Positions 2,970 to 24,916 of a DNA stretch of 32,000 nt are shown here, in pieces. Within the stretch, counting starts at the first letter, position 1; every line of letters starts with the position of its first letter. The stretch covers positions 1 through 32,000 of the forward strand of contig JBHLKY010000009.1 in the NCBI GenBank assembly GCA_048886185.1, written 5' to 3'. The notes under the pieces were generated by a model that did not search any database, was not told the DNA's origin, and saw only the letters and a program-made list of their open reading frames with translations. The translations under genes and the position numbers were made by a program. This DNA comes from Candidatus Hermodarchaeota archaeon. GTDB lineage: Archaea > Asgardarchaeota > Heimdallarchaeia > Hodarchaeales > Hodarchaeaceae.

Positions 2970-3292
2970 AACCTATGAAAGTCAGCTTTAACAATTATAA
3001 TTGGGGCTTAACGACAATGGAAAGTATATAACCAATGCTAATGTGTTACTAAAAGAATTTTATTCAGGAATAGTTTTTGTCTTATTATTTCATTCATAAG
3101 GAAAAACAGAAATAGAAATAATTCAGCTTTCTTATTCTTAACTGGAACCTCTATCACTTTAAGCACAATTAGACTCTTAGAAGAATGTGAGACTCAAAAT
3201 GCAATAAGCAGTATCTTGTCATTTGTGTTCCGATCCTCTTATTGATTAAATGGACAGTAATATCGACATTATTCAGTTAATATCTTTAGAGC

Positions 3293-4150
3293 TTATCCAA
3301 ATAATATAAATTTAAACAACATTGGTATTTTATGTGGCTTAACTAATATTGGGACTTTCTTTTTATAATTATGGTACTCTTGACCGAATCGTTCTATTAA
3401 TTCTTTTTCTTCAACAAATTTTAGGTGTATATTTATTCCTATTACAAACAAAATAAACGAACTCAATGCATACACGGATAAATACCCAATCCATCCTCCC
3501 AATCCAATTAAAATTACAGCAAAATATGTAGGATGTCTAACAACAGAATATATTTGGTTTTTCTTCAATTTGGATTCATTAGGATAATATATGTACACTA
3601 AGGCCATATAATCTATCCCAAAGACTGCAAAAGTTCTTATTATAGTAAGAAAGCCAACAAGAGTAATAATTAGCCCAAATATGAATGCTACTATAGATAA
3701 TGGTTGATTTCCAAGGAATAATGGAGAGGCTAGTTTTTGGGTGATGGGATTTATGGGTTTCCAAAATAATTCTATAGGAATTAATCTGTGGATAACAGTC
3801 GCAATTACTATTGGAATCCCTAAAAAACCAACTATTATTCCTTTTTGATATGCAGTTTCTCTTGATTCACTAAGAAGTCTTTCTCTTTTACTCCACACTC
3901 TTGAAATGAACATGAATCCAAGTGTAATAGAAACCATTTGCCCAAATATAGGTAAGAATGGCTCAATAATTATTAAAAATTGGTAATTAGGGTGTAAACT
4001 GGGTAAAATATACATCAGCACTAAAAATATGAGATTCAAACAACCAGCTAGTAACGCAATAAGAAAAATAATCATTATTTTTCTCCCAGAATAAGATGGC
4101 AGTTTTTCTCTAAATTTTTCCATCCCTTTGATATGCATTATCAATTTCAT
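3293..4150 (-). CDS. Isoprenylcysteine carboxyl methyltransferase / phospholipid methyltransferase family membrane protein
   Basis: Several TM segments; YSVVRHPTY and EEKELIERFGQEYHNYKKKVP motifs. Confidence 0.88.
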   Translation of the reverse strand: MKLIMHIKGMEKFREKLPSYSGRKIMIIFLIALLAGCLNLIFLVLMYILPSLHPNYQFLIIIEPFLPIFGQMVSITLGFMFISRVWSKRERLLSESRETAYQKGIIVGFLGIPIVIATVIHRLIPIELFWKPINPITQKLASPLFLGNQPLSIVAFIFGLIITLVGFLTIIRTFAVFGIDYMALVYIYYPNESKLKKNQIYSVVRHPTYFAVILIGLGGWIGYLSVYALSSFILFVIGINIHLKFVEEKELIERFGQEYHNYKKKVPILVKPHKIPMLFKFILFG

Positions 4151-4188
4151 CTCTTAATGAATCATTTTATTGGTCCCTTATTAATTAA

Positions 4189-4290
4189 ATGGAAGCACTA
4201 TTGGATTATACGCCAGAGATGGATTTCACCTTTACACCGATTTTTGAAGTTGCTAAATTCGTTGAATCATATCAAAAAATGCGAAAATAA
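4189..4290 (+). CDS. Possible 33-aa small ORF or gene remnant (MEALLDYTPEMDFTFTPIFEVAKFVESYQKMRK)
   Basis: ATG at 4189, TAA at 4288-4290, protein-like composition. Not in the supplied ORF track; no clear SD. Confidence 0.2.
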   Translation: MEALLDYTPEMDFTFTPIFEVAKFVESYQKMRK

Positions 4291-4345
4291 CTTAATTCAC
4301 TCTAAATCCACCTAACAACTCCATAGTTACATTTCATCCTCTTTC

Positions 4346-5281
4346 CTATTTTTTATAAGCAAGAAGAACCTCAAAATCATTGAGATCTGGCAGTAATTTT
4401 GCTAAATTAACTGCAATTGAAGAACTGGCATAGAAATGGAAATTAACTCTAAGGGGAACATCAGTCCAGCCTAATTTAACACATTCATTAGCTAACTCTA
4501 TAAGCATCCGATTCCATGCATCCCGATATTTTGGTCGTACAGCTGAAAATCTCAATAATATTCTTTTTTCCTTGCCAACAAGAACAGATGTTCCAGGTTG
4601 AACTCTCAGAATGGCACCTGTGGCGACAACTTGATCATTATAAAAAACTAAGACCGTATTTCCATCTTTGAGTACTTTACTTGCGAAGTAATTTGTTGCA
4701 ACTTCTCGGGTTAAGAATTGCCAGTTTGGATCTGCTTTACATAATTCAATGAGCTTTTCAAGATCTTCTTGTGTTGCAGCTCGACAAGTGTAGGATTGTA
4801 GCTCCTCTGTTATATTCCAATTACAGATTTTATCAATCTCGAAATCGTAAAAATAGTAATATAAGCGTTCTTTTTCAGAGAAACCTTTTTTTGTAAAAAA
4901 CTCTATTCTTTCATCAATACCTTCAACATTGAGTACTAGAGGAGCAGTGATTTCTAAGATTTTTTCCCTTTGTAGCAGATATGCAAAAAGCTCATCAAAT
5001 ATTTTTTCTTGTACTCCAGCGGGACAAGCTGATAAAGCCCAAGGATAACTTATATGCGTTCGGCCAATATGTGAAGTTGAATCTGTTGCTTGTACATATG
5101 CTAATGGGGCACCATCTTCTGTTAACGCGTATATAGTTGTTTTGGGGTCTTTTTTCTGATCCTTGTATCGTGATCTTATGTCTTCACCCGATACGGGGCG
5201 ACCTGTTACTTCTGAATAGATTTTTGCTTGAAGATCTTCTAATCCTTGATCTGGTTTATAATATCGATAAATGACTTTCAT
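4346..5281 (-). CDS. Tandem GNAT-fold protein (paralog of 6235..7170)
   Basis: Two GNAT-like halves (IYRYY.../LAYVQ; CRAATQEDLEKL/VVATG/SAVRPKY). 311 aa. The acetyl-CoA motif A is degenerate. Confidence 0.7.
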   Translation of the reverse strand: MKVIYRYYKPDQGLEDLQAKIYSEVTGRPVSGEDIRSRYKDQKKDPKTTIYALTEDGAPLAYVQATDSTSHIGRTHISYPWALSACPAGVQEKIFDELFAYLLQREKILEITAPLVLNVEGIDERIEFFTKKGFSEKERLYYYFYDFEIDKICNWNITEELQSYTCRAATQEDLEKLIELCKADPNWQFLTREVATNYFASKVLKDGNTVLVFYNDQVVATGAILRVQPGTSVLVGKEKRILLRFSAVRPKYRDAWNRMLIELANECVKLGWTDVPLRVNFHFYASSSIAVNLAKLLPDLNDFEVLLAYKK

Positions 5282-5307
5282 AATGCTCTTTCATCCTTGA
5301 ATTGTGA

Positions 5308-6204
5308 TTATATACATGTAAATTGCTCTTTTTTTGTTTTTCTATCAATTTTAAGTTGTTTGACATAACTATTCTTGAAAAAATCGTCGTGAGTATAAAT
5401 GGGAAATGTAGAACAATAATTCGTGATCTCAGTCAGGATTTCAACCGTTTGTTTATAGTCTCGTTGAACTATCTGCTTCATTTCAGGAGAGACAATGAGA
5501 GACTCAAGTATCTCAAAATATTCCTTCACACGATGATTCCATTTACCACGACTCCTCCGACCCAACCTATAAATAATTGGAGTTTCAATCTCTATAAATC
5601 TAAGACCTGATTCGGAAACGAATTGCCAGAACACTAAAGGAAAAGCATATCCAGCATGATAAAGATTATTTGGAAGTGTCTTCACCCTATATCCTTTTAG
5701 ACCACAGAAAGCATCGGTTATTTCTAAACCAAAACATTTGTTGATTGTTCTTGTAAGTAGCATGTTGAGGATGTACCGATCAAGTGGAACTTCTGTATTA
5801 TGATGCCAAAAGCGATAAGAGAGATAACGGCTTGTGGAAACTAGATCAATATCAGGATCAAAATGAAGGAGATCCAAGATCTCTCTAATGCTGAAAGGAG
5901 CGTGTTGTAGATCAGCATCAAAAGTAATTAATATATCATAGTTTAGTTTAGCTAGTTGAAATAATGTCAGAATCGTATTTCCATAACCATGGGGGCCATC
6001 TTCGTGCATAAGATACTGGAATGGGTATTGTTTCGCTAACTCCTTGTAGATCTTTCGAGATTTATCTGTACTTCCATCATCTACCACTACAACAGTTATG
6101 TCATATTCTGAACACTCGGTAGTTAGAAATTTGTAAAGAGAATGAATGCACTCAGATATGTATGCTTGTTCGTTATAAAGAGGGATTCCAATTAAGACCT
6201 TCAT
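5308..6204 (-). CDS. Glycosyltransferase family 2 (DPM1-like GT-A fold)
   Basis: IPLYNE, VVDDGSTD, GYG, FDADLQH (DxD), SRY and ITDAFCGLKGYR motifs. Confidence 0.93.
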   Translation of the reverse strand: MKVLIGIPLYNEQAYISECIHSLYKFLTTECSEYDITVVVVDDGSTDKSRKIYKELAKQYPFQYLMHEDGPHGYGNTILTLFQLAKLNYDILITFDADLQHAPFSIREILDLLHFDPDIDLVSTSRYLSYRFWHHNTEVPLDRYILNMLLTRTINKCFGLEITDAFCGLKGYRVKTLPNNLYHAGYAFPLVFWQFVSESGLRFIEIETPIIYRLGRRSRGKWNHRVKEYFEILESLIVSPEMKQIVQRDYKQTVEILTEITNYCSTFPIYTHDDFFKNSYVKQLKIDRKTKKEQFTCI

Positions 6205-6234
6205 TGATTTTTTACTCCAACTCTGGATACTATT

Positions 6235-7170
6235 TTAATCAGGAAGAGTAAAAAGAACTGCCATATCTTCGATTGAGTCTTGTAATTGGGCTAGATGGAC
6301 TGCATTCATTGAATACCCAAAAAATAATGTACTAATTCTCAAGGGAAGATTTTCCCAACCACTTTTGATACAATCTTTCGCAACTTCAATAAGCAATCTT
6401 CTCCAAGCGTAAGTATGTTCAGGACGGGTCGCTGATGTTAAACCAATTATTTCAAGGCCTTTATCTTTTCCCCTCGTTAAATTTCTTCGATATGGAAGAC
6501 CTATTGAGACTATCTGGTTGTCTTTAATGATCAGCTTGTTATTATCATCTCTTAGAAAAGTATTTTCAAGATAGTATGTAGTCTCCTCAACACTCGGGAA
6601 GACATCACGCATATAATTGTCCACATGACAGACTTCAATAATTTGTTCAAGGTCATCAATTGTACCTAATCTACACGTATAGGAGGCAATTTCATTAGTC
6701 ATTTCCCAAGTAGAAATCTCCAATAGATTGAAATCCATACTGTATACATAAAGATGCTCTTTTTCAACGAATTCTTTCTTCTGAAAAAAAGCAATACGTT
6801 CTTCAGTGGTTGGTGTTTCGAATACAACTTCACCAGCGATTACTTGGGGATGAATAGTGTCTTGTAACCATTTAAGTAATTCATCAAAGATCTTTTCTTG
6901 TGCTTCAGTAGGGCAGTCAGGTAGTGCCCATGGATAACTAACAATGTATGTTCCGGGTCTTGCGGCCCATCTACTAGTTTGAACATAAGCTAAAAGGTCT
7001 CCATCCTCCGTTAAAACATAACGAGCACTTAAAGGATCCCTTTTTTCACCTTTAAAACGTCTTTTAATCTCCTCAGCATCAGCAGGTAGTCCTGAAACTT
7101 TTGTATAGACTTTTGCTTGTTTCTCTTCCAGTCCTTGATTTGGTTCATAATGTCGATAAATCAATTTCAA
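6235..7170 (-). CDS. Tandem GNAT-fold protein (paralog of 4346..5281)
   Basis: 311 aa. Shares QGLE, LTEDG, LAYVQ, SYPWAL and QEKIFDEL with the paralog. TTG start. Confidence 0.7.
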   Translation of the reverse strand: MKLIYRHYEPNQGLEEKQAKVYTKVSGLPADAEEIKRRFKGEKRDPLSARYVLTEDGDLLAYVQTSRWAARPGTYIVSYPWALPDCPTEAQEKIFDELLKWLQDTIHPQVIAGEVVFETPTTEERIAFFQKKEFVEKEHLYVYSMDFNLLEISTWEMTNEIASYTCRLGTIDDLEQIIEVCHVDNYMRDVFPSVEETTYYLENTFLRDDNNKLIIKDNQIVSIGLPYRRNLTRGKDKGLEIIGLTSATRPEHTYAWRRLLIEVAKDCIKSGWENLPLRISTLFFGYSMNAVHLAQLQDSIEDMAVLFTLPD

Positions 7171-7373
7171 TGTAATCCTTTCTCCATCACTTCTTTGTTA
7201 GAAGAATTCCCATTTAGTGACATTAATTAACATGTACTGTCAATGATTGTAATCACATTTATTTAATTTACTATTGTGGCTAATCTTTAAATAGTCTTAA
7301 ATTTCCCTCTAACTTGAAGAAAAGTGATTAAATTCCAAGTTGAAAAACCTTTATTTCCCATGAGTGTCATAAT

Positions 7374-8060
7374 ATGAAAGATGGAAACAAATCGAATAAA
7401 AAAGCCTCAGAATATTGTTTTTATATTACATATAAACCACAAAATGTAAAATCAGTCTCAAGAGAGGAATTAGATTTAATCAAAGAACATTATCTGATTA
7501 TTTCCGCTTTAAGAAATAAAGTTATGAGTGCAAAAGATATCTATAATCTCTTTCGAAATCAAGAAACAGGGGACTATACTTATACTTTAAAAACAATTTA
7601 TCGTCATTTAGAAAAATTAGAAACTGCAGGAATAGTAACAGCTGCAGGCTATCGGGAAAAAAAGGGAACAAGATCGTGTGAAAAGGTATATTGTAGAACA
7701 GCGAAAATTTTTTTTCCTGAAATTGAAGAAGAAGACATAAAATGGTGGGAACTAGAAAATGGTAAACAATATGCTCAAATATTTAAAATCACATTATCTG
7801 AGCTATTGCAAAAATCAGAACCAGATAAGGAGTCGTTTAATAAACTATTCAAACAATTAAATCGACTTCAAATCAAAACAAGAAAAGAATTATTCGAAAA
7901 AGCTAGAAACAATGATGAACTTGCGGACTCTCTAAGTCAAATTGACATCAATAAATTAAATTCCATTGTTGATTTAGCAAGTATTCTTAAAGTTCTTTTA
8001 CAAGATCCATATTTGCTTAATCAGTTGCAAAAGCTCTTAAACATGAAAGAATCGAAATAA
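7374..8060 (+). CDS. Winged-helix (ArsR-like) transcriptional regulator
   Basis: MSAKDIY...TIYRHLEKLETAGIV...EKVYCRTAKIF; divergent from the GNAT-GT2-GNAT cassette. Confidence 0.8.
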   Translation: MKDGNKSNKKASEYCFYITYKPQNVKSVSREELDLIKEHYLIISALRNKVMSAKDIYNLFRNQETGDYTYTLKTIYRHLEKLETAGIVTAAGYREKKGTRSCEKVYCRTAKIFFPEIEEEDIKWWELENGKQYAQIFKITLSELLQKSEPDKESFNKLFKQLNRLQIKTRKELFEKARNNDELADSLSQIDINKLNSIVDLASILKVLLQDPYLLNQLQKLLNMKESK

Positions 8061-17813: not shown

Positions 17814-19430
17814 ATGACTGTAAAATTTTGGAGGCGTCCCAATTCTGGACGTTCTGCTGTACACGCATGTAATGGAATGGTAGCTTCTTCCCAACCCCTC
17901 GCTTCTCAAACTGGTGTTCAGATACTACAAAACGGAGGAAATGCTTGTGATGCAATCGTGGCAATGGCAGCCGTATTAAATGTTGTTGAACCTTTCTCAA
18001 CAGGTATTGGTGGCGATGCCTTTGCTCTTTTATATATACCAGGAGATAAAGCCCCAAAGGCAATTAATGGATCAGGTTTTGCTCCAGAAAATCTATCTTA
18101 CAGTTATCTCGTGGATGAGCTAGCTCTGGAAACAATGCCCATCAATGGAGTAATTCCAATTACTGTACCTGGGGCTGTTAGTGCTTGGGAATTGATTCAA
18201 GAAACCTATGGGAGACTTTCCTGGGAGGAAATACTTCAGCCAGCAATAAAATACGCTCAGAATGGTTTTCCAGTTAGTCCTATTATAGCTGAGGTCTGGA
18301 AAGAACTTGTCCCCAAACTCTGTAATCATGATGGTGCTCGAAAAAATTATCTGATAAATGAAGAAAGAGCTCCTGCCGTTGGAGAGATATTTAAACAAAA
18401 AGCACTTGCATCTACATTGAGTGTTATTGCAAAACAAGGAGCAGAAGCATTTTATCACGGTGAACTCGCACATCGAATTGTAGAATTCCTAGAAAACCAA
18501 GGTGGTTTTATTAAAAATTCTGATTTAGAAAATTTTAAGGCCGAATGGACAGAACCTATCTCTCAAGAAATCTATAATAACATAGTGTGGGAACATGGGC
18601 CAAATGGACAAGGATTAACAACTCTTCTAATTCTCAATATTGTAGAAGAATTAGATATTGCTAGGTATCCCCTCAATTCAGCAGCTTATCTTCATCATTT
18701 TATTGAATCTAAAAAGATTGCTTTTGCAGATGCCTTCGCACAAATTGCGGATCCAAGATTCATGACAATTTCTCCCTCCAAATTGCTTTCTGAAGAATAC
18801 TCTCAGACTCGTGCTAGTCAGATCAATCCTAGACGGGCAATGAAGGTTATAACTGCTCCTCTCGAAATGGCGGATGATACTGTATATTTAACCGCTGCTG
18901 ATAAAGAAGGGATGGCTATTTCATTCATTAATTCTCTCTATTATGGTTTTGGTTCAGGGATTGTAGACCCACAAACGGGCATTGCATTTCAGAATCGGGG
19001 GGCAGGTTTTTCGTTAATTAAAGATCATCCCAACCAATATATGCCCAAAAAACGTCCCTTTCACACTATTATCCCCGCAATGATAACCTCATCTGAGAGT
19101 GAACTAGAATATTCCTTTGGTGTGATGGGGGGACATCATCAACCTCAAGGTCAAGCCCAAGTATTTCTCAATTTAATTCTGCATGAAATGGATCCGCAAG
19201 AAGCAATTAGCTGTCCAAGATTTCATCATGATCAGATATTAAATACTGTGGCCTTAGAAGATCCTATTGGAGTGAATATTCGTACTAAGTTGCGTAATCT
19301 TGGTCATACAATAGTTGACTGTGTGGGTACAAACTTTGGAGGTGGACAGATTATTAAAAGAAACTCTTCAAATAATTGCTATATCGGAGGATCTGATCCT
19401 CGTAAAGATGGTCAAGTCGATGGATACTAA
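17814..19430 (+). CDS. ggt: Gamma-glutamyltransferase family protein (YwrD-like)
   Basis: GGNACDA, TGIGGD, TVPGAV, autocleavage Thr in DDTVYL, NRGAGF, KRPFHTIIP, GVMGG and DPRKDG. Confidence 0.95.
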   Translation: MTVKFWRRPNSGRSAVHACNGMVASSQPLASQTGVQILQNGGNACDAIVAMAAVLNVVEPFSTGIGGDAFALLYIPGDKAPKAINGSGFAPENLSYSYLVDELALETMPINGVIPITVPGAVSAWELIQETYGRLSWEEILQPAIKYAQNGFPVSPIIAEVWKELVPKLCNHDGARKNYLINEERAPAVGEIFKQKALASTLSVIAKQGAEAFYHGELAHRIVEFLENQGGFIKNSDLENFKAEWTEPISQEIYNNIVWEHGPNGQGLTTLLILNIVEELDIARYPLNSAAYLHHFIESKKIAFADAFAQIADPRFMTISPSKLLSEEYSQTRASQINPRRAMKVITAPLEMADDTVYLTAADKEGMAISFINSLYYGFGSGIVDPQTGIAFQNRGAGFSLIKDHPNQYMPKKRPFHTIIPAMITSSESELEYSFGVMGGHHQPQGQAQVFLNLILHEMDPQEAISCPRFHHDQILNTVALEDPIGVNIRTKLRNLGHTIVDCVGTNFGGGQIIKRNSSNNCYIGGSDPRKDGQVDGY

Positions 19431-19521
19431 CTAGTAAGTTCTTGAAGAATAAAATTCAAGTAAGGAATTATATTCTAAAACAAAAAAACATCAAAATTTA
19501 ATCTTAATGGCTTCTTAATAC

Positions 19522-20748
19522 GTGATTATGATGGAAAATGACGCAATTCTAACCAAATTATTGAAGCAAACGAGAAATGAGTTATACTCTTGGGCAACAA
19601 ACGATTTAACATGTCAGTTGGCAAAAGAGGTTATGACTATTGGATTAGCGAAGATAAAATTGTTTTATCAGGAGTTAGGCGTTGATTCAAGTGCGATAAT
19701 TGTATTTGGACCTGATGGAAGTGTCACACGAAATAAAGCTAGATTCAATGAGGGTGTTGGTTATGGATGTGTCGTTGCGACTAAGGATTTCATTTTCCCT
19801 AGTTTACTCCATCCAAATGGCTGTGGTTTTGGGCTTTACAAAATTGATAATATACCTTCTTTACAACAGTTGATAAGAAAATTAAATAGATTAAAGAGAG
19901 AGGGGGTTCCCATTGGGAGTCAACAGGGTAAATGGGATGTTTGGAAGTCGAATCACTTTATTGACATTCTTAAGTTGGATAGAGTCAGTCCAAAATATTC
20001 CCAATTCGAGGAATGGTTATCTCAAGGAAGTTATGTTCTAATACACTCATCACAGCAAACTCAGACCGAACGTTTAAATCATTGGAATGATGAGGAATTC
20101 ATAAGAGTTCATACTCCCCTTGGGACAGTTGAGGGACTTACTGGTGAATCTATAAGGGAGTATCTTAAATTCTTTCAAAAAGTTGAAGCATATAGTAAGA
20201 AAAAAAGAACATCCATTGCGACTGAACTTTTTGGAGAAGAAAATGTCAGCTGTATTTCTAATCCTACTCATCAAGGGTATTATCAAGAAGATAGCTACTA
20301 TGTAATGAGACTTGGCCTCTATAACTCGATTGATCCAACTGGGGAGAAAACAATACCTGTTTTCCCTTTAGCTTTCAATGGCTATTCCTTTATCTATCTT
20401 TATGAAGGATTACCAAATGTTAAAAGACAGTACTGGACTGAGAATCAGTATGAAAGAGCTAAAAATATGGGGCATGTTGATTTCTTGAAAAAGGCGAACC
20501 TTCTTCCGCACGGTGGTGGTTATTCATTGAATTATCCGTTTTCTACCGTAAAATCTCTTGTATTCGATGGTGTTATCTATTTTGAGTTATTTGATGCTGC
20601 TATGGCTAAAAGCCATTTGCTTATTAAAAATATTGAAGCATTAGAGTACGGGTATCGGGGACCAACTGAAATCTTACCTTTAGTCGATCAGCTTGAATTT
20701 GGAAAAAGAGTTGCTCAATTTGTTCCAATAACTGTTATTAAATTTTGA
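19522..20748 (+). CDS. Divergent RtcB-fold protein
   Basis: Motifs in RtcB order: GPD, PNGCG, SNHFID, LIHS, THQGY, LLPHGGGY, C-terminal PITVIK. Confidence 0.7.
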   Translation: MIMMENDAILTKLLKQTRNELYSWATNDLTCQLAKEVMTIGLAKIKLFYQELGVDSSAIIVFGPDGSVTRNKARFNEGVGYGCVVATKDFIFPSLLHPNGCGFGLYKIDNIPSLQQLIRKLNRLKREGVPIGSQQGKWDVWKSNHFIDILKLDRVSPKYSQFEEWLSQGSYVLIHSSQQTQTERLNHWNDEEFIRVHTPLGTVEGLTGESIREYLKFFQKVEAYSKKKRTSIATELFGEENVSCISNPTHQGYYQEDSYYVMRLGLYNSIDPTGEKTIPVFPLAFNGYSFIYLYEGLPNVKRQYWTENQYERAKNMGHVDFLKKANLLPHGGGYSLNYPFSTVKSLVFDGVIYFELFDAAMAKSHLLIKNIEALEYGYRGPTEILPLVDQLEFGKRVAQFVPITVIKF

Positions 20749-20953: not shown

Positions 20954-21868
20954 ATGGAGGAAAAAGCACCTAACGCTGAATTGCGAAAAAAGCTCTTAGA
21001 GGATCGTCAAGACCTTTCATTTCCGGGCCGTCAATCTCTAATTGCTAATATTCAGAGTAGGTTTGCTGTGAAGGGAGATGTATGGATTCATCATGCATAT
21101 AATGTCCCTGAAGAAGACCCTCTTGTCATCAATGAGGAAGGAGGTAACATTCAATATCAAGATAGAATAATAGTTCCCGCTATAATTCATACTTTGGTTG
21201 ATAAAGTTGGGGGAATGAGAACAACAAGTATTGCAGCAATTAGTGGTATGAAAACCCCAGAGCTGATGTTACTTCAGGATCCTGCTACAATGAATCTTGC
21301 TATCATCTACAAAGAGAAATTATGGATCACTGAAATTTTATTAAAAGAGGTTGATTTTCTATATCCCTTTCCTGCTGAAAGAACTCATGCATTAACCGAC
21401 AGTGAACGAACAATCGTCGAGGTGTCTCAAGAGGACATTTCTATAGAAATAACAGGACATCGCGCTAAAGGAGGGATTGTTCAAGAGAAGATTTTCATGC
21501 CTCTTGATTCGAATTACCATCCTGTTTTAGGGGGAACGGATCCTGCAAAACGATTTAAAACCTCACTCCCAAGGTTTCCTGACATAGGGGAACTGGTATT
21601 AATGATTTCAGATGCAATCTCCAGTTCTGCTAAAATGTATCTAGGTACTGTAAATGTAAGACTTGATGAGGGCCGATTCGCGTTGGAATACCCCCAAGAT
21701 ATAAATGTTGCAGGATTGAAGATATATCGAAAATATTTAGATGTAATAGAGGTTCGCTCCCCCTCCAATCCCCCTCATATGGAACTCCAACGTGTTATTT
21801 TCCGCATATATCGAACTGAAATATCTCGTCATATAAGAAGCCTTATCAAGATGCTTCATATCGGTTGA
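20954..21868 (+). CDS. Hypothetical soluble protein
   Basis: 304-aa ORF, ATG start, no TM segment, no motif recognised. Confidence 0.8.
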   Translation: MEEKAPNAELRKKLLEDRQDLSFPGRQSLIANIQSRFAVKGDVWIHHAYNVPEEDPLVINEEGGNIQYQDRIIVPAIIHTLVDKVGGMRTTSIAAISGMKTPELMLLQDPATMNLAIIYKEKLWITEILLKEVDFLYPFPAERTHALTDSERTIVEVSQEDISIEITGHRAKGGIVQEKIFMPLDSNYHPVLGGTDPAKRFKTSLPRFPDIGELVLMISDAISSSAKMYLGTVNVRLDEGRFALEYPQDINVAGLKIYRKYLDVIEVRSPSNPPHMELQRVIFRIYRTEISRHIRSLIKMLHIG

Positions 21869-22649: not shown

Positions 22650-23486
22650 ATGTCAAATAAGGAAGTAGAGGATTTAAAAACCTTAATAAAAGCATTAGAT
22701 ATTCGTTTTAAAAATGAAGAGATATCTGTTGAAGAATATAACAATTTAAAAGAAAAATACGAGGCTAGACTAGAAGAGGAGATTAGTCTTGTTAAAGAGA
22801 AAAGTTTTCTAAAGAATCTTTCATATATCAGTATTTCTGGATCAGGAAAGGTTACTGACTCGTATATCAGTATTTCTGGATCAGGAAAAGTTGATGGATG
22901 GAGAGGGGGATCTATAGCTATTTCTGGATCTGGAAAAATATCTGAGGATGAAATTAAGGTTAGTGGTTCTGCATCTCTCCCAGGTGATCTAAAAACACAC
23001 ACTTTAAAAGCATCTGGTTCAGTTAAGGCTGATGGACCAATTGAAACTACTATTTTCAAAAGTTCTGGATCGTGCAAAATCGAAGGCGATTTGATTGCTC
23101 ATGAAACACTTGCTATTTCTGGATCAGGAAGTATAGAGGCTGATCTTAAAGGTGGTGATATTTCTTCAAGTGGTGCATTGAAAGTGACTGGTGAAGTTCA
23201 GTGTATTAATGCTGATCTTAATGGTGCCTATAGGATTGGGGGAAACGTGAAATGCCAAGGATCATTTACTTCTGAAATAAATTCAAAATGCACCATTGAA
23301 GGAGATTTAATCTGTGGTGGAAACGTTCAAATTGAACAGGGGAGTCACCGTGGCCAACTTCGTGTGGATAAAATTCTTGCTGAAGGAGATGTTTACCTTG
23401 AAGGAGTTTCCGCCCAGTATGTTGAGGGGAAGACAGTTAAAATTGGACCGGAATGTCATGTTGACAAAGTAGAGGAAAAAGCCTAA
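22650..23486 (+). CDS. Bactofilin-like (polymer-forming, YhbE/YhbF-type) beta-helix protein with an N-terminal SHOCT-like domain
   Basis: ISGSG/SGS beta-helix repeats; C-terminal EGDVYLEGVSAQYVEGKTVKIGPECHVDKVE; N-terminal LDIRFKNEEISVEEYNNLK. Confidence 0.8.
   Translation: MSNKEVEDLKTLIKALDIRFKNEEISVEEYNNLKEKYEARLEEEISLVKEKSFLKNLSYISISGSGKVTDSYISISGSGKVDGWRGGSIAISGSGKISEDEIKVSGSASLPGDLKTHTLKASGSVKADGPIETTIFKSSGSCKIEGDLIAHETLAISGSGSIEADLKGGDISSSGALKVTGEVQCINADLNGAYRIGGNVKCQGSFTSEINSKCTIEGDLICGGNVQIEQGSHRGQLRVDKILAEGDVYLEGVSAQYVEGKTVKIGPECHVDKVEEKA
22824..22888 (+). repeat. Exact 26-bp direct repeat (39-nt period) inside the bactofilin-like gene
   Basis: TATATCAGTATTTCTGGATCAGGAAA at 22824-22849 and 22863-22888, encoding YISISGSGK twice. 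Confidence 0.95.
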
Positions 23487-24358: not shown

Positions 24359-24916
24359 CTATGTTGACGCTTGGGCTTTGTAGCTTTCAATATATCCCTT
24401 TATTGTTCTACCCAGTTCTGTAAAAGCTTCCGTTACGTTTAAACCTGATTTAGCGGATGTATTAAGAAATGTAATAGTAAAATTAATTTCAGTTATTTCT
24501 TGTTGAGATTTAGTCAAAAAAGATGTTAATTCATCTTGATTTACTGTTATTCCAGGTAAATCGCTCTTATTTCCTAATATTATATATGGGATTTGCCTGC
24601 CTACATTTGTAAAAAGCTCTTTTTTCCAGTTTTCAAGGTTGTATAAACTTTCAGGTCGAGTACGATCAAACACGAGGATGGCTCCATGCGATCCTTTATA
24701 ATAAAGAGCTCGTACAGCTTCAAACCGTTGTTGTCCTGCAAGATCCCAGATTTGAAACTTATATTGCATTCCATCAATTTCAAGATTTTGAACTGCGAAA
24801 TCGGCACCGATTGTCAGTATATAACCGCTCTGAAACCCCTTTCCAAGAAATCGTTCCCTTAGAGAGGTTTTTCCAACTCCACCATCGCCTAGTAAGCAAA
24901 TTTTGTACAATGGCAC
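24359..24916 (-). CDS. Rab-like small GTPase (Ras superfamily)
   Basis: GDGGVGKT, TIGADF, IWDLAGQ, YYKG, GNKSD and TSAK motifs. Confidence 0.96.
   Translation of the reverse strand: MPLYKICLLGDGGVGKTSLRERFLGKGFQSGYILTIGADFAVQNLEIDGMQYKFQIWDLAGQQRFEAVRALYYKGSHGAILVFDRTRPESLYNLENWKKELFTNVGRQIPYIILGNKSDLPGITVNQDELTSFLTKSQQEITEINFTITFLNTSAKSGLNVTEAFTELGRTIKGYIESYKAQAST

Follow-up and report, generated by a model that had tools for sequence, protein, structure and literature searches.

A family of RtcB-fold proteins outside PF01139, with a predicted RtcB-type nucleotidylation core and without the known contacts of RtcB to the 5'-OH strand

The first 32,000 nucleotides of contig JBHLKY010000009.1 from a Candidatus Hermodarchaeota archaeon (Hodarchaeaceae; assembly GCA_048886185.1), a stretch that we call the window, contain an open reading frame (ORF; 19522-20748, forward strand, GTG start at 19522, 408 aa) whose product has the RtcB fold over its catalytic domain. 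Together with its relatives it forms an unannotated sister family of RtcB, outside PF01139. We consider it likely, with a probability of about 0.65, that these proteins carry out RtcB-type nucleotidyl transfer, i.e. metal-dependent, phosphate-activating chemistry, on a non-canonical substrate. Judged from the sequences, the family retains the core residues for nucleotidylation together with one and a half metal sites, and has lost one ligand of the second metal along with all of the known side-chain contacts to the 5'-OH strand.

An RtcB fold that sequence models miss

The AlphaFold2 (AF2) model of the ORF has a mean predicted local distance difference test score (pLDDT) of 93.5 and a predicted template modelling score (pTM) of 0.91, and structure searches with it returned matches to RtcB structures only. 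Sequence models were far less informative. Pfam PF01139 did not match the ORF even at E <= 10, nor any of 42 remote family members at E <= 0.01, and a single-sequence phmmer search of the Protein Data Bank (PDB) found nothing for the ORF. The sole curated sequence model with any signal was NCBIfam NF007153 (PRK09588), whose positions 55-224 aligned with ORF residues 80-237 at an E-value of 0.0022, with 17 bits against a cut-off of 407. Curated libraries dated 2025-2026 (Pfam, NCBIfam) hold no model of the family, PADLOC and PHROGs gave no match for the ORF, for a second copy in the same genome (paralog 2, below) or for the 304-aa neighbour, and a search of the available literature library found no paper describing the family.

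Homology searches retrieved 125 and 170 relatives from Heimdall/Hodarchaeales, Altiarchaeota, Methanohalarchaeum, Woesearchaeota and Polyangiaceae, all of them annotated as hypothetical and lacking a Pfam domain. An alignment of 36 sequences showed the invariant blocks PNxCG, NHF, H175, NxTHQG, NLLPHGGGY and YGYR. Searched against the PDB, the profile built from it had Thermus RtcB (2epg) as its best match, a weak one (E 0.15) that is nevertheless exact at NHF..H and at HGxG and the C-terminus. To number equivalent residues, the genome's own canonical RtcB was anchored to that of P. horikoshii (Pho) and two profile alignments were then made with hhalign; a run in -glob mode gave a meaningless alignment of 12 columns and was discarded. 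An earlier note on this DNA, made from the letters and their translations, had proposed a divergent RtcB-like fold and an uncharacterised RtcB-like clade. The fold is borne out by the searches with the AF2 model and by the profile-profile alignment, and the clade by relatives that are all hypothetical, Pfam-invisible and of the RtcB fold. A coincidental resemblance of motifs in a protein unrelated to RtcB would fit the missing PF01139 match and the empty phmmer search, but it is effectively refuted by the RtcB-only structure matches and the profile-profile alignment.

Active-site residues kept and lost

Eight motifs stand in RtcB order, as the earlier note had listed them: GPD (residues 63-65), PNGCG (98-102), SNHFID (143-148), LIHS (173-176), THQGY (249-253), RLG (263-265), LLPHGGGY (327-334) and PITVIK (402-407). 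As a set they lie far beyond chance expectation. In a census of 58 family sequences that covers all clades, C101, H145, F146, H175, R229, H250, H330, G331, G333 and R379 are present in 58/58, and N99, N144, Q251 and Y334 in 56/58 each; the four histidines are also invariant across the 42 most remote members.

In RtcB, the first metal (M1) is bound by Cys98, His234 and His329 and the second (M2) by Asp95, Cys98 and His203; Asn202 and Asn330 touch the phosphates of GTP, guanine is read by Glu206 and Lys480, and His404 is the nucleophile (PMC9745838, PMC8668186). Glu206 makes the contact to N1/N2 of guanine (PMC9745838), and the phosphates of the 5'-OH strand are gripped by Arg190, Gln194 and Arg238 (PMC8051266). 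All three M1 ligands have counterparts in the window protein: C101 of PNGCG (19813-19827) aligns with Cys98, which bridges both metals, H175 of LIHS (20038-20049) with His234, and H250 of THQGY (20266-20280) with His329, this last pairing coming from one alignment. At M2 the Cys and His are present and the Asp is absent, its position being taken by P98; the neighbouring, near-invariant N99 might substitute for it. N144, H145 and F146 of SNHFID (19948-19965) match Asn202, His203 and Phe204 in a block that hhalign aligns with high confidence and that is also aligned in the profile match to 2epg. The contacts to the nucleotide phosphates are kept as N144 and as Q251 of THQGY, the latter a conservative amide replacement of Asn330, which contacts the gamma-phosphate.

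The nucleophilic histidine lies in LLPHGGGY (20500-20523), where P-H330-G-G-G is invariant and aligns with HGAG of RtcB, so that H330 takes the place of the nucleotidylated His404. The stretch H330-G-G-G-Y334 corresponds to His404-Gly-Ala-Gly-Arg408, and Y334 replaces Arg408; the census has Tyr there in 56/58 and His in 2/58. At the two guanine-reading positions, the window protein has D148 for Glu206 (D39/N8/E5/A4/K2 in the census) and, in PITVIK (20725-20742), K407 for Lys480, the contact to guanine O6 (K42/R7/other 9).

None of the three contacts to the 5'-OH strand is retained. Arg190 is lost with a stretch of ~60 residues that is missing between the Cys and NHF, Gln194 aligns with Gly136, and the position of Arg238 is occupied by Q179 (20056-20058), just downstream of LIHS, which is H, Q, P, S or G and never Arg among the 58 sequences. 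Elsewhere in the protein, D65 of P64-D65 (19711-19716) pairs with Pho Asp65 in hhalign (P64 in 58/58, D65 in 56/58), R229 (20206-20208; 100% invariant) pairs with the Arg of the ANRQ helix of RtcB (Pho Arg296 by offset), and Y378-R379 (20653-20658) corresponds to Pho Tyr451-Lys452 in a C-terminal block of very high confidence. MRLGL (20305-20319) stands where RtcB has its HRKG motif, M262-R-L-G265 at Pho His349-Arg-Lys-Gly352, with G265 as the sole invariant residue. The substitutions pointed out in the earlier note, Pro three residues before the Cys, MRLGL for HRKGA and HGGGY for HGAGR, are all reproduced by the profile-profile alignment (hhalign).

A paralog beside canonical RtcB

The earlier note had left open whether the genome also has a canonical RtcB. 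It does, in one copy (E 5e-160) directly downstream of archease; the pair lies on the same contig and the forward strand, ~113 kb downstream of the window (C9:133946-135786), and RtcA is found on another contig (C3). Canonical RtcB is present in 41/41 sampled genomes of the phylum. Because the genome has this separate archease-RtcB pair, the window gene is a further paralog, distinct from the tRNA-splicing ligase. Three other Asgard genomes carry a canonical RtcB match that is split (model positions 1-50 and ~49-426) within one frame of ~1000 aa (G035:C16:2586-5357, G026:C1:1558351-1561179 and G003:C38:129362-132214), which suggests an intein-sized insertion after position 50.

The window genome encodes a second family member, paralog 2 (G000:C2:98593-99813, reverse strand, equal to L034:7591-8829; 412 aa), which is 27% identical to the window copy and has the more common form of the family, with PNACGM, GNHFIN, NKTHQG and ILPHGGGY. 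In this genus each genome carries two or three copies. Paralog 2 is divergent to a 398-aa protein of the HIT/GalT-like nucleotidyltransferase family and convergent with an Alg9-like glycosyltransferase; the HIT/GalT-like neighbour was rejected as a functional partner, its adjacency being confined to the genus.

Distribution and phylogeny

The family occurs in 82/201 sampled genomes of the phylum, very unevenly across families, and 193 loci were confirmed when species-representative genomes were scanned. The archaeal ones are spread over many phyla and include Hodarchaeota, Altiarchaeota, Hadarchaeota, Hydrothermarchaeales, Bathyarchaeia, Thermoplasmata, Methanocellales, Methanofastidiosia and Nanoarchaeota/Woesearchaeota. 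Bacterial loci are spread over at least five phyla and include Anaerolineae/Chloroflexia, Actinobacteria, Haliangium and other Deltaproteobacteria, Spirochaetales and Halanaerobiales. About 170 clusters at 50% identity match at E <= 0.001. In a FastTree phylogeny with SH-like support values, window-type sequences fall into a Hodarchaeales clade with full support. This clade groups (0.988) with one found in Metallophos-family-GDPD operons, both on long branches, and paralog 2 is placed with the common Asgard form.

Gene neighbourhoods across the family

Partners were sought by unbiased clustering of the neighbours of 63 loci outside Hodarchaeales, and ~110 family loci were inspected in all. A BLAST comparison of the neighbours of the first distant loci found no shared partner; partners emerged with 80 more loci. 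The most frequent is one specific HD phosphohydrolase family, present in 15/63 loci; in 11 of these 15 it is the immediate neighbour in the same orientation, before or after the RtcB-like gene, at a distance of -4 to +56 nt. It also lies beside or near the RtcB-like gene in three other Asgard families and in one metagenomic clade. An AP_endonuc_2-type TIM barrel is found in 13/63 loci (directly downstream in 9), a pairing that extends to Hadarchaeota, an ATP-grasp-like protein of 440 aa, with a weak Pfam signal below cut-off, in 11/63, and an AstE/AspA-type amidohydrolase in 8/63. These genes come together in two operons, in the order RtcB-like gene, ATP-grasp-like, AstE and HD in one (L118:6001-10062) and AstE, ATP-grasp-like, a 153-aa ORF, RtcB-like gene and AP_endonuc_2 TIM barrel in another (L105, ~3000-8000). 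Two genera have a Metallophos-family-GDPD operon with the RtcB-like gene in its middle.

Fusions occur as well. A 743-aa protein (L055:6001-8232) joins an APH-type kinase domain to an RtcB-like domain. Its gene is closely packed, all on one strand, with genes for two radical SAM enzymes, an uncharacterised protein, an aminotransferase, an SDR and a HAD hydrolase, and a second HAD gene follows on the opposite strand; the whole looks like a small-molecule biosynthetic cluster. The ESM Atlas has a 936-aa cluster in which Metallophos is combined with an RtcB-like fold. No fused form turned up in a search for proteins of at least 724 aa, a negative of little weight given that the 743-aa APH fusion (P0179) is real. 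Neither archease, RtcA nor any other dedicated RNA-repair partner was seen in the ~110 inspected loci, and the linkage to archease, RtcA or RtcR that marks RtcB is thus absent from these loci.

Some recurrent arrangements look like housekeeping synteny. In Altiarchaeota and relatives (loci L076, L079-L081, L085, L087, L088, L094, L099, L110 and L135) the order is PolB, a divergently transcribed GCD14/PCMT-like methyltransferase, the RtcB-like gene, the AP_endonuc_2 TIM barrel, DUF131 and TBP, and it is the methyltransferase, PolB and TBP neighbours that we would read in this way. In one large Asgard family (f10; L036-L039 and L044) the RtcB-like gene is convergent with the gene for methionyl-tRNA synthetase (MetRS) and adjoins one for a VWA/RING-finger protein; the MetRS arrangement is probably lineage synteny. 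One further locus (L056) has a NOG1-like GTPase beside the RtcB-like gene.

The window locus

The database protein that is 100% identical to the ORF has 405 aa, and homologs align from ORF residue 4; because both begin there, the ATG at 19531 (residue 4) is probably the real start, giving a protein of 405 aa. The gene follows an AT-rich spacer of 91 bp with a TATA-like AAAATTTAAT (19493-19502, forward strand) ~30 nt before the ATG pair 19528/19531, and this element and the spacer are a possible promoter of its own.

As stated in the earlier note, an S9 peptidase and a gamma-glutamyltranspeptidase (GGT) precede the gene, and neither rtcA nor archease is found within the window. The GGT gene (17814-19430, forward strand) lies directly upstream on the same strand in 15/15 window-type loci. 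The gene for the S9 prolyl-oligopeptidase-family peptidase (15758-17797, forward strand) stands upstream of GGT in 9/15, and is not at that position in three complete window-type loci. A 304-aa orphan restricted to Hodarchaeales (20954-21868, forward strand), which belongs to no known family and has a weakly Roadblock-like fold, follows directly in 14/15 loci, the 15th ending at the contig end. The order GGT, RtcB-like gene, 304-aa orphan is fixed in the Hodarchaeales-specific clade. By this gene order, GGT and the orphan are putative functional partners.

Further downstream the window encodes an ArsR-type regulator, a bactofilin-like protein (22650-23486, forward strand), a flavoprotein and a Ras-like small GTPase (24359-24916, reverse strand), the second and the last within a few kb. 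The Ras-like GTPase adjacency (11/28 loci) was considered as a partner signal and rejected: it is at background, with 63 Ras-family matches in the genome, or ~1 per 77 kb, expected to place one in ~18% of 15-kb windows by chance, and the loci are non-independent. Genes for a His_Phos_1 histidine phosphatase (13455-14204, reverse strand) and a DUF7342 protein (14334-14777, reverse strand) lie 5-6 kb upstream, with no visible link to the RtcB-like gene.

Discussion

For the catalysis, the nucleotide and the class of substrate, we infer the following route. An NTP would bind over a metal site in which Cys101, His175 and His250 hold M1, and Cys101, His145 and a substitute for the missing Asp95 hold M2, with Asn144 and Gln251 contacting the phosphates. 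In the window protein the nucleotide is probably GTP, because the equivalents of Glu206 and Lys480 are Asp148 and Lys407. His330 would then attack the alpha-phosphate, giving a covalent enzyme-His-NMP, and the NMP would pass to the substrate, at a phosphomonoester or some other anionic oxygen, and so activate it. The activated substrate could be released as a capped product, or a hydroxyl could attack it to form a new phosphodiester. We argue that the covalent His-NMP step is kept, since the His-Gly-Gly-Gly loop, the bridging Cys, three further His and the phosphate-contacting Asn and Gln are strictly conserved. The acceptor is unlikely to be the canonical pair of RNA splice ends, because nothing in the protein corresponds to Arg190, Gln194, Arg238 or the Arg of HGAGR and the organism has a separate archease-RtcB pair. 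The loss of these strand clamps, together with a partner set of phosphoesterases, ATP-grasp-like proteins and amidohydrolases elsewhere and GGT here, points away from ordinary RNA sealing.

If the family does activate a non-canonical substrate, a metabolite or peptide-linked substrate seems to us about as likely as an unusual nucleic-acid end. A more specific and quite tentative version would make these proteins the first non-nucleic-acid enzymes of the RtcB fold: NTP- and metal-dependent His-NMP activation of a metabolite or peptide-linked phosphate (possibly a carboxylate) would yield a phosphodiester or NMP-capped product, in concert with an ATP-grasp amidoligase, amidohydrolases of the AstE/AspA or GGT type, and phosphoesterases (HD, Metallophos, GDPD or TIM-barrel) that can stand in for one another.

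Several observations weigh against nucleotidyl transfer to a non-canonical substrate. The position of the M2 ligand Asp95 (residue 98) is P47/S7/I3/V1 and Asp in 0/58 sequences, a loss by which NTP binding or nucleotidylation could be altered or abolished. Since the equivalents of Glu206 and Lys480 vary across the family, the nucleotide is uncertain, and the THQGY pairing, taken from alternative alignment 2 of the first hhalign run, is of lower confidence, a later hhalign run having mis-registered the block. The window genome does have an ortholog of the HD partner (E 8e-86) and homologs of Metallophos and GDPD, but none is adjacent to the gene, and the ATP-grasp and AstE types are absent from it. 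Finally, HD and Metallophos proteins are classic partners in RNA end-healing too, so that a nucleic-acid substrate would be compatible with the gene context.

This last point bears on the possibility that the protein is a bona fide but very divergent 3'-phosphate/5'-OH RNA (or DNA) ligase that binds nucleic acid through other residues. It has the fold and catalytic core of RtcB, the family-specific invariant basic residues R70, R74, R229, R379 and K44 could serve such binding, the HD, Metallophos and endonuclease-IV-type partners might act in end healing, and translation-related genes adjoin some loci (MetRS in one Asgard family, the NOG1-like GTPase). Even so we think it rather unlikely. The deletion removes Arg190, other residues stand at the positions of Gln194 and Arg238, Tyr takes the place of the Arg of HGAGR, and in RtcB the Eco variant R189A, at the equivalent of Arg238, seals 200-fold more slowly (PMC8051266). 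Nor did the ~110 loci hold rtcA, archease or Hen1/Pnkp-type or nuclease partners, and the ATP-grasp, AstE/AspA, GDPD, APH kinase and radical-SAM/aminotransferase partners do not belong to RNA repair.

Two further explanations dispense with nucleotidyl transfer. Intact M1 ligands beside a lost M2 Asp, and phosphoesterase neighbours, would suit a metal site used for hydrolysis or other chemistry without His-NMP, such as a cyclic or ordinary phosphodiesterase, and RtcB itself has a step in which it hydrolyses 2',3'-cyclic phosphate (PMC8668186). We judge this improbable, as the nucleophilic His and the PHGGG loop are the most conserved block (58/58), which is hard to explain without His-NMP, and the NTP-contacting residues at Asn144 and Gln251 are retained. 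A catalytically dead RtcB-fold protein acting as a regulator, nucleotide sensor or scaffold would account for the loss of Asp95, Arg238 and Arg408, which are essential in RtcB. It is more improbable still: the active-site Cys, four His, Asn and Gln are strictly conserved from archaea to bacteria, where overall identity is ~25%, and the gene is embedded in enzyme operons. We therefore favour nucleotidyl transfer to a non-canonical substrate, at the odds given at the outset.

Among known systems, the closest is RtcB itself (PF01139; P. horikoshii PH1602, 1UC2/4DWQ; T. thermophilus TTHA1785, 2EPG; human RTCB, 7P3B). Compared with it, the window protein is ~80 residues shorter, with the ~60-residue deletion between the Cys and NHF that takes out Arg190, and it has Pro for Asp95, Gln for Arg238, MRLG for HRKG and HGGGY for HGAGR; its family is invisible to Pfam, is not linked to archease or RtcA, and occurs in the same genome as a canonical RtcB. 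The 379-aa 'RNA ligase RtcB family protein' profile NF007153 (PRK09588) is similarly compact, but the window protein scores far below its cut-off and is not a member. We place the protein as a new variant within the RtcB superfamily and not as a member of the RtcB family, because it departs from RtcB in five features, namely the cut-off of the hidden Markov model, Asp95, the strand contacts, Arg408 and the linkage to archease or RtcA. To our knowledge, all RtcB-fold proteins characterised so far are 3'-phosphate ligases of nucleic acids. A second family of this fold that keeps the histidine-nucleotidylation machinery and has systematically lost the RNA-strand clamps would, if active, widen RtcB chemistry to a new substrate class or reveal a new mode of nucleic-acid binding. 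Hundreds of proteins now annotated as 'hypothetical' would also gain a name, among them two in each genome of the Hodarchaeales, archaea closely related to eukaryotes.

Work from the Shuman laboratory reportedly describes several RtcB paralogs in Myxococcus xanthus, among them RtcB3 with nucleic-acid capping, which are said to be ordinary PF01139 members acting on nucleic acids. They are a precedent for several RtcB-fold copies per genome and for capping instead of sealing, and the present family is also found in Myxococcota; unlike those paralogs as reported, it lies outside PF01139 and is without the strand-binding arginines. For the proposed chemistry, CofC/CofD of F420 biosynthesis offer an analogy that is functional only, as the folds are unrelated and no evidence ties the family to F420 or to any named metabolite. 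In that pathway GTP activates a phosphomonoester (X-P + GTP -> X-pp-G), and a hydroxyl then forms a phosphodiester with release of GMP, a logic like that of steps 2-3 of RtcB. F420 moreover carries a gamma-glutamyl tail, which, by the same analogy, is echoed in the ATP-grasp, AstE and GGT neighbours of the RtcB-like genes.
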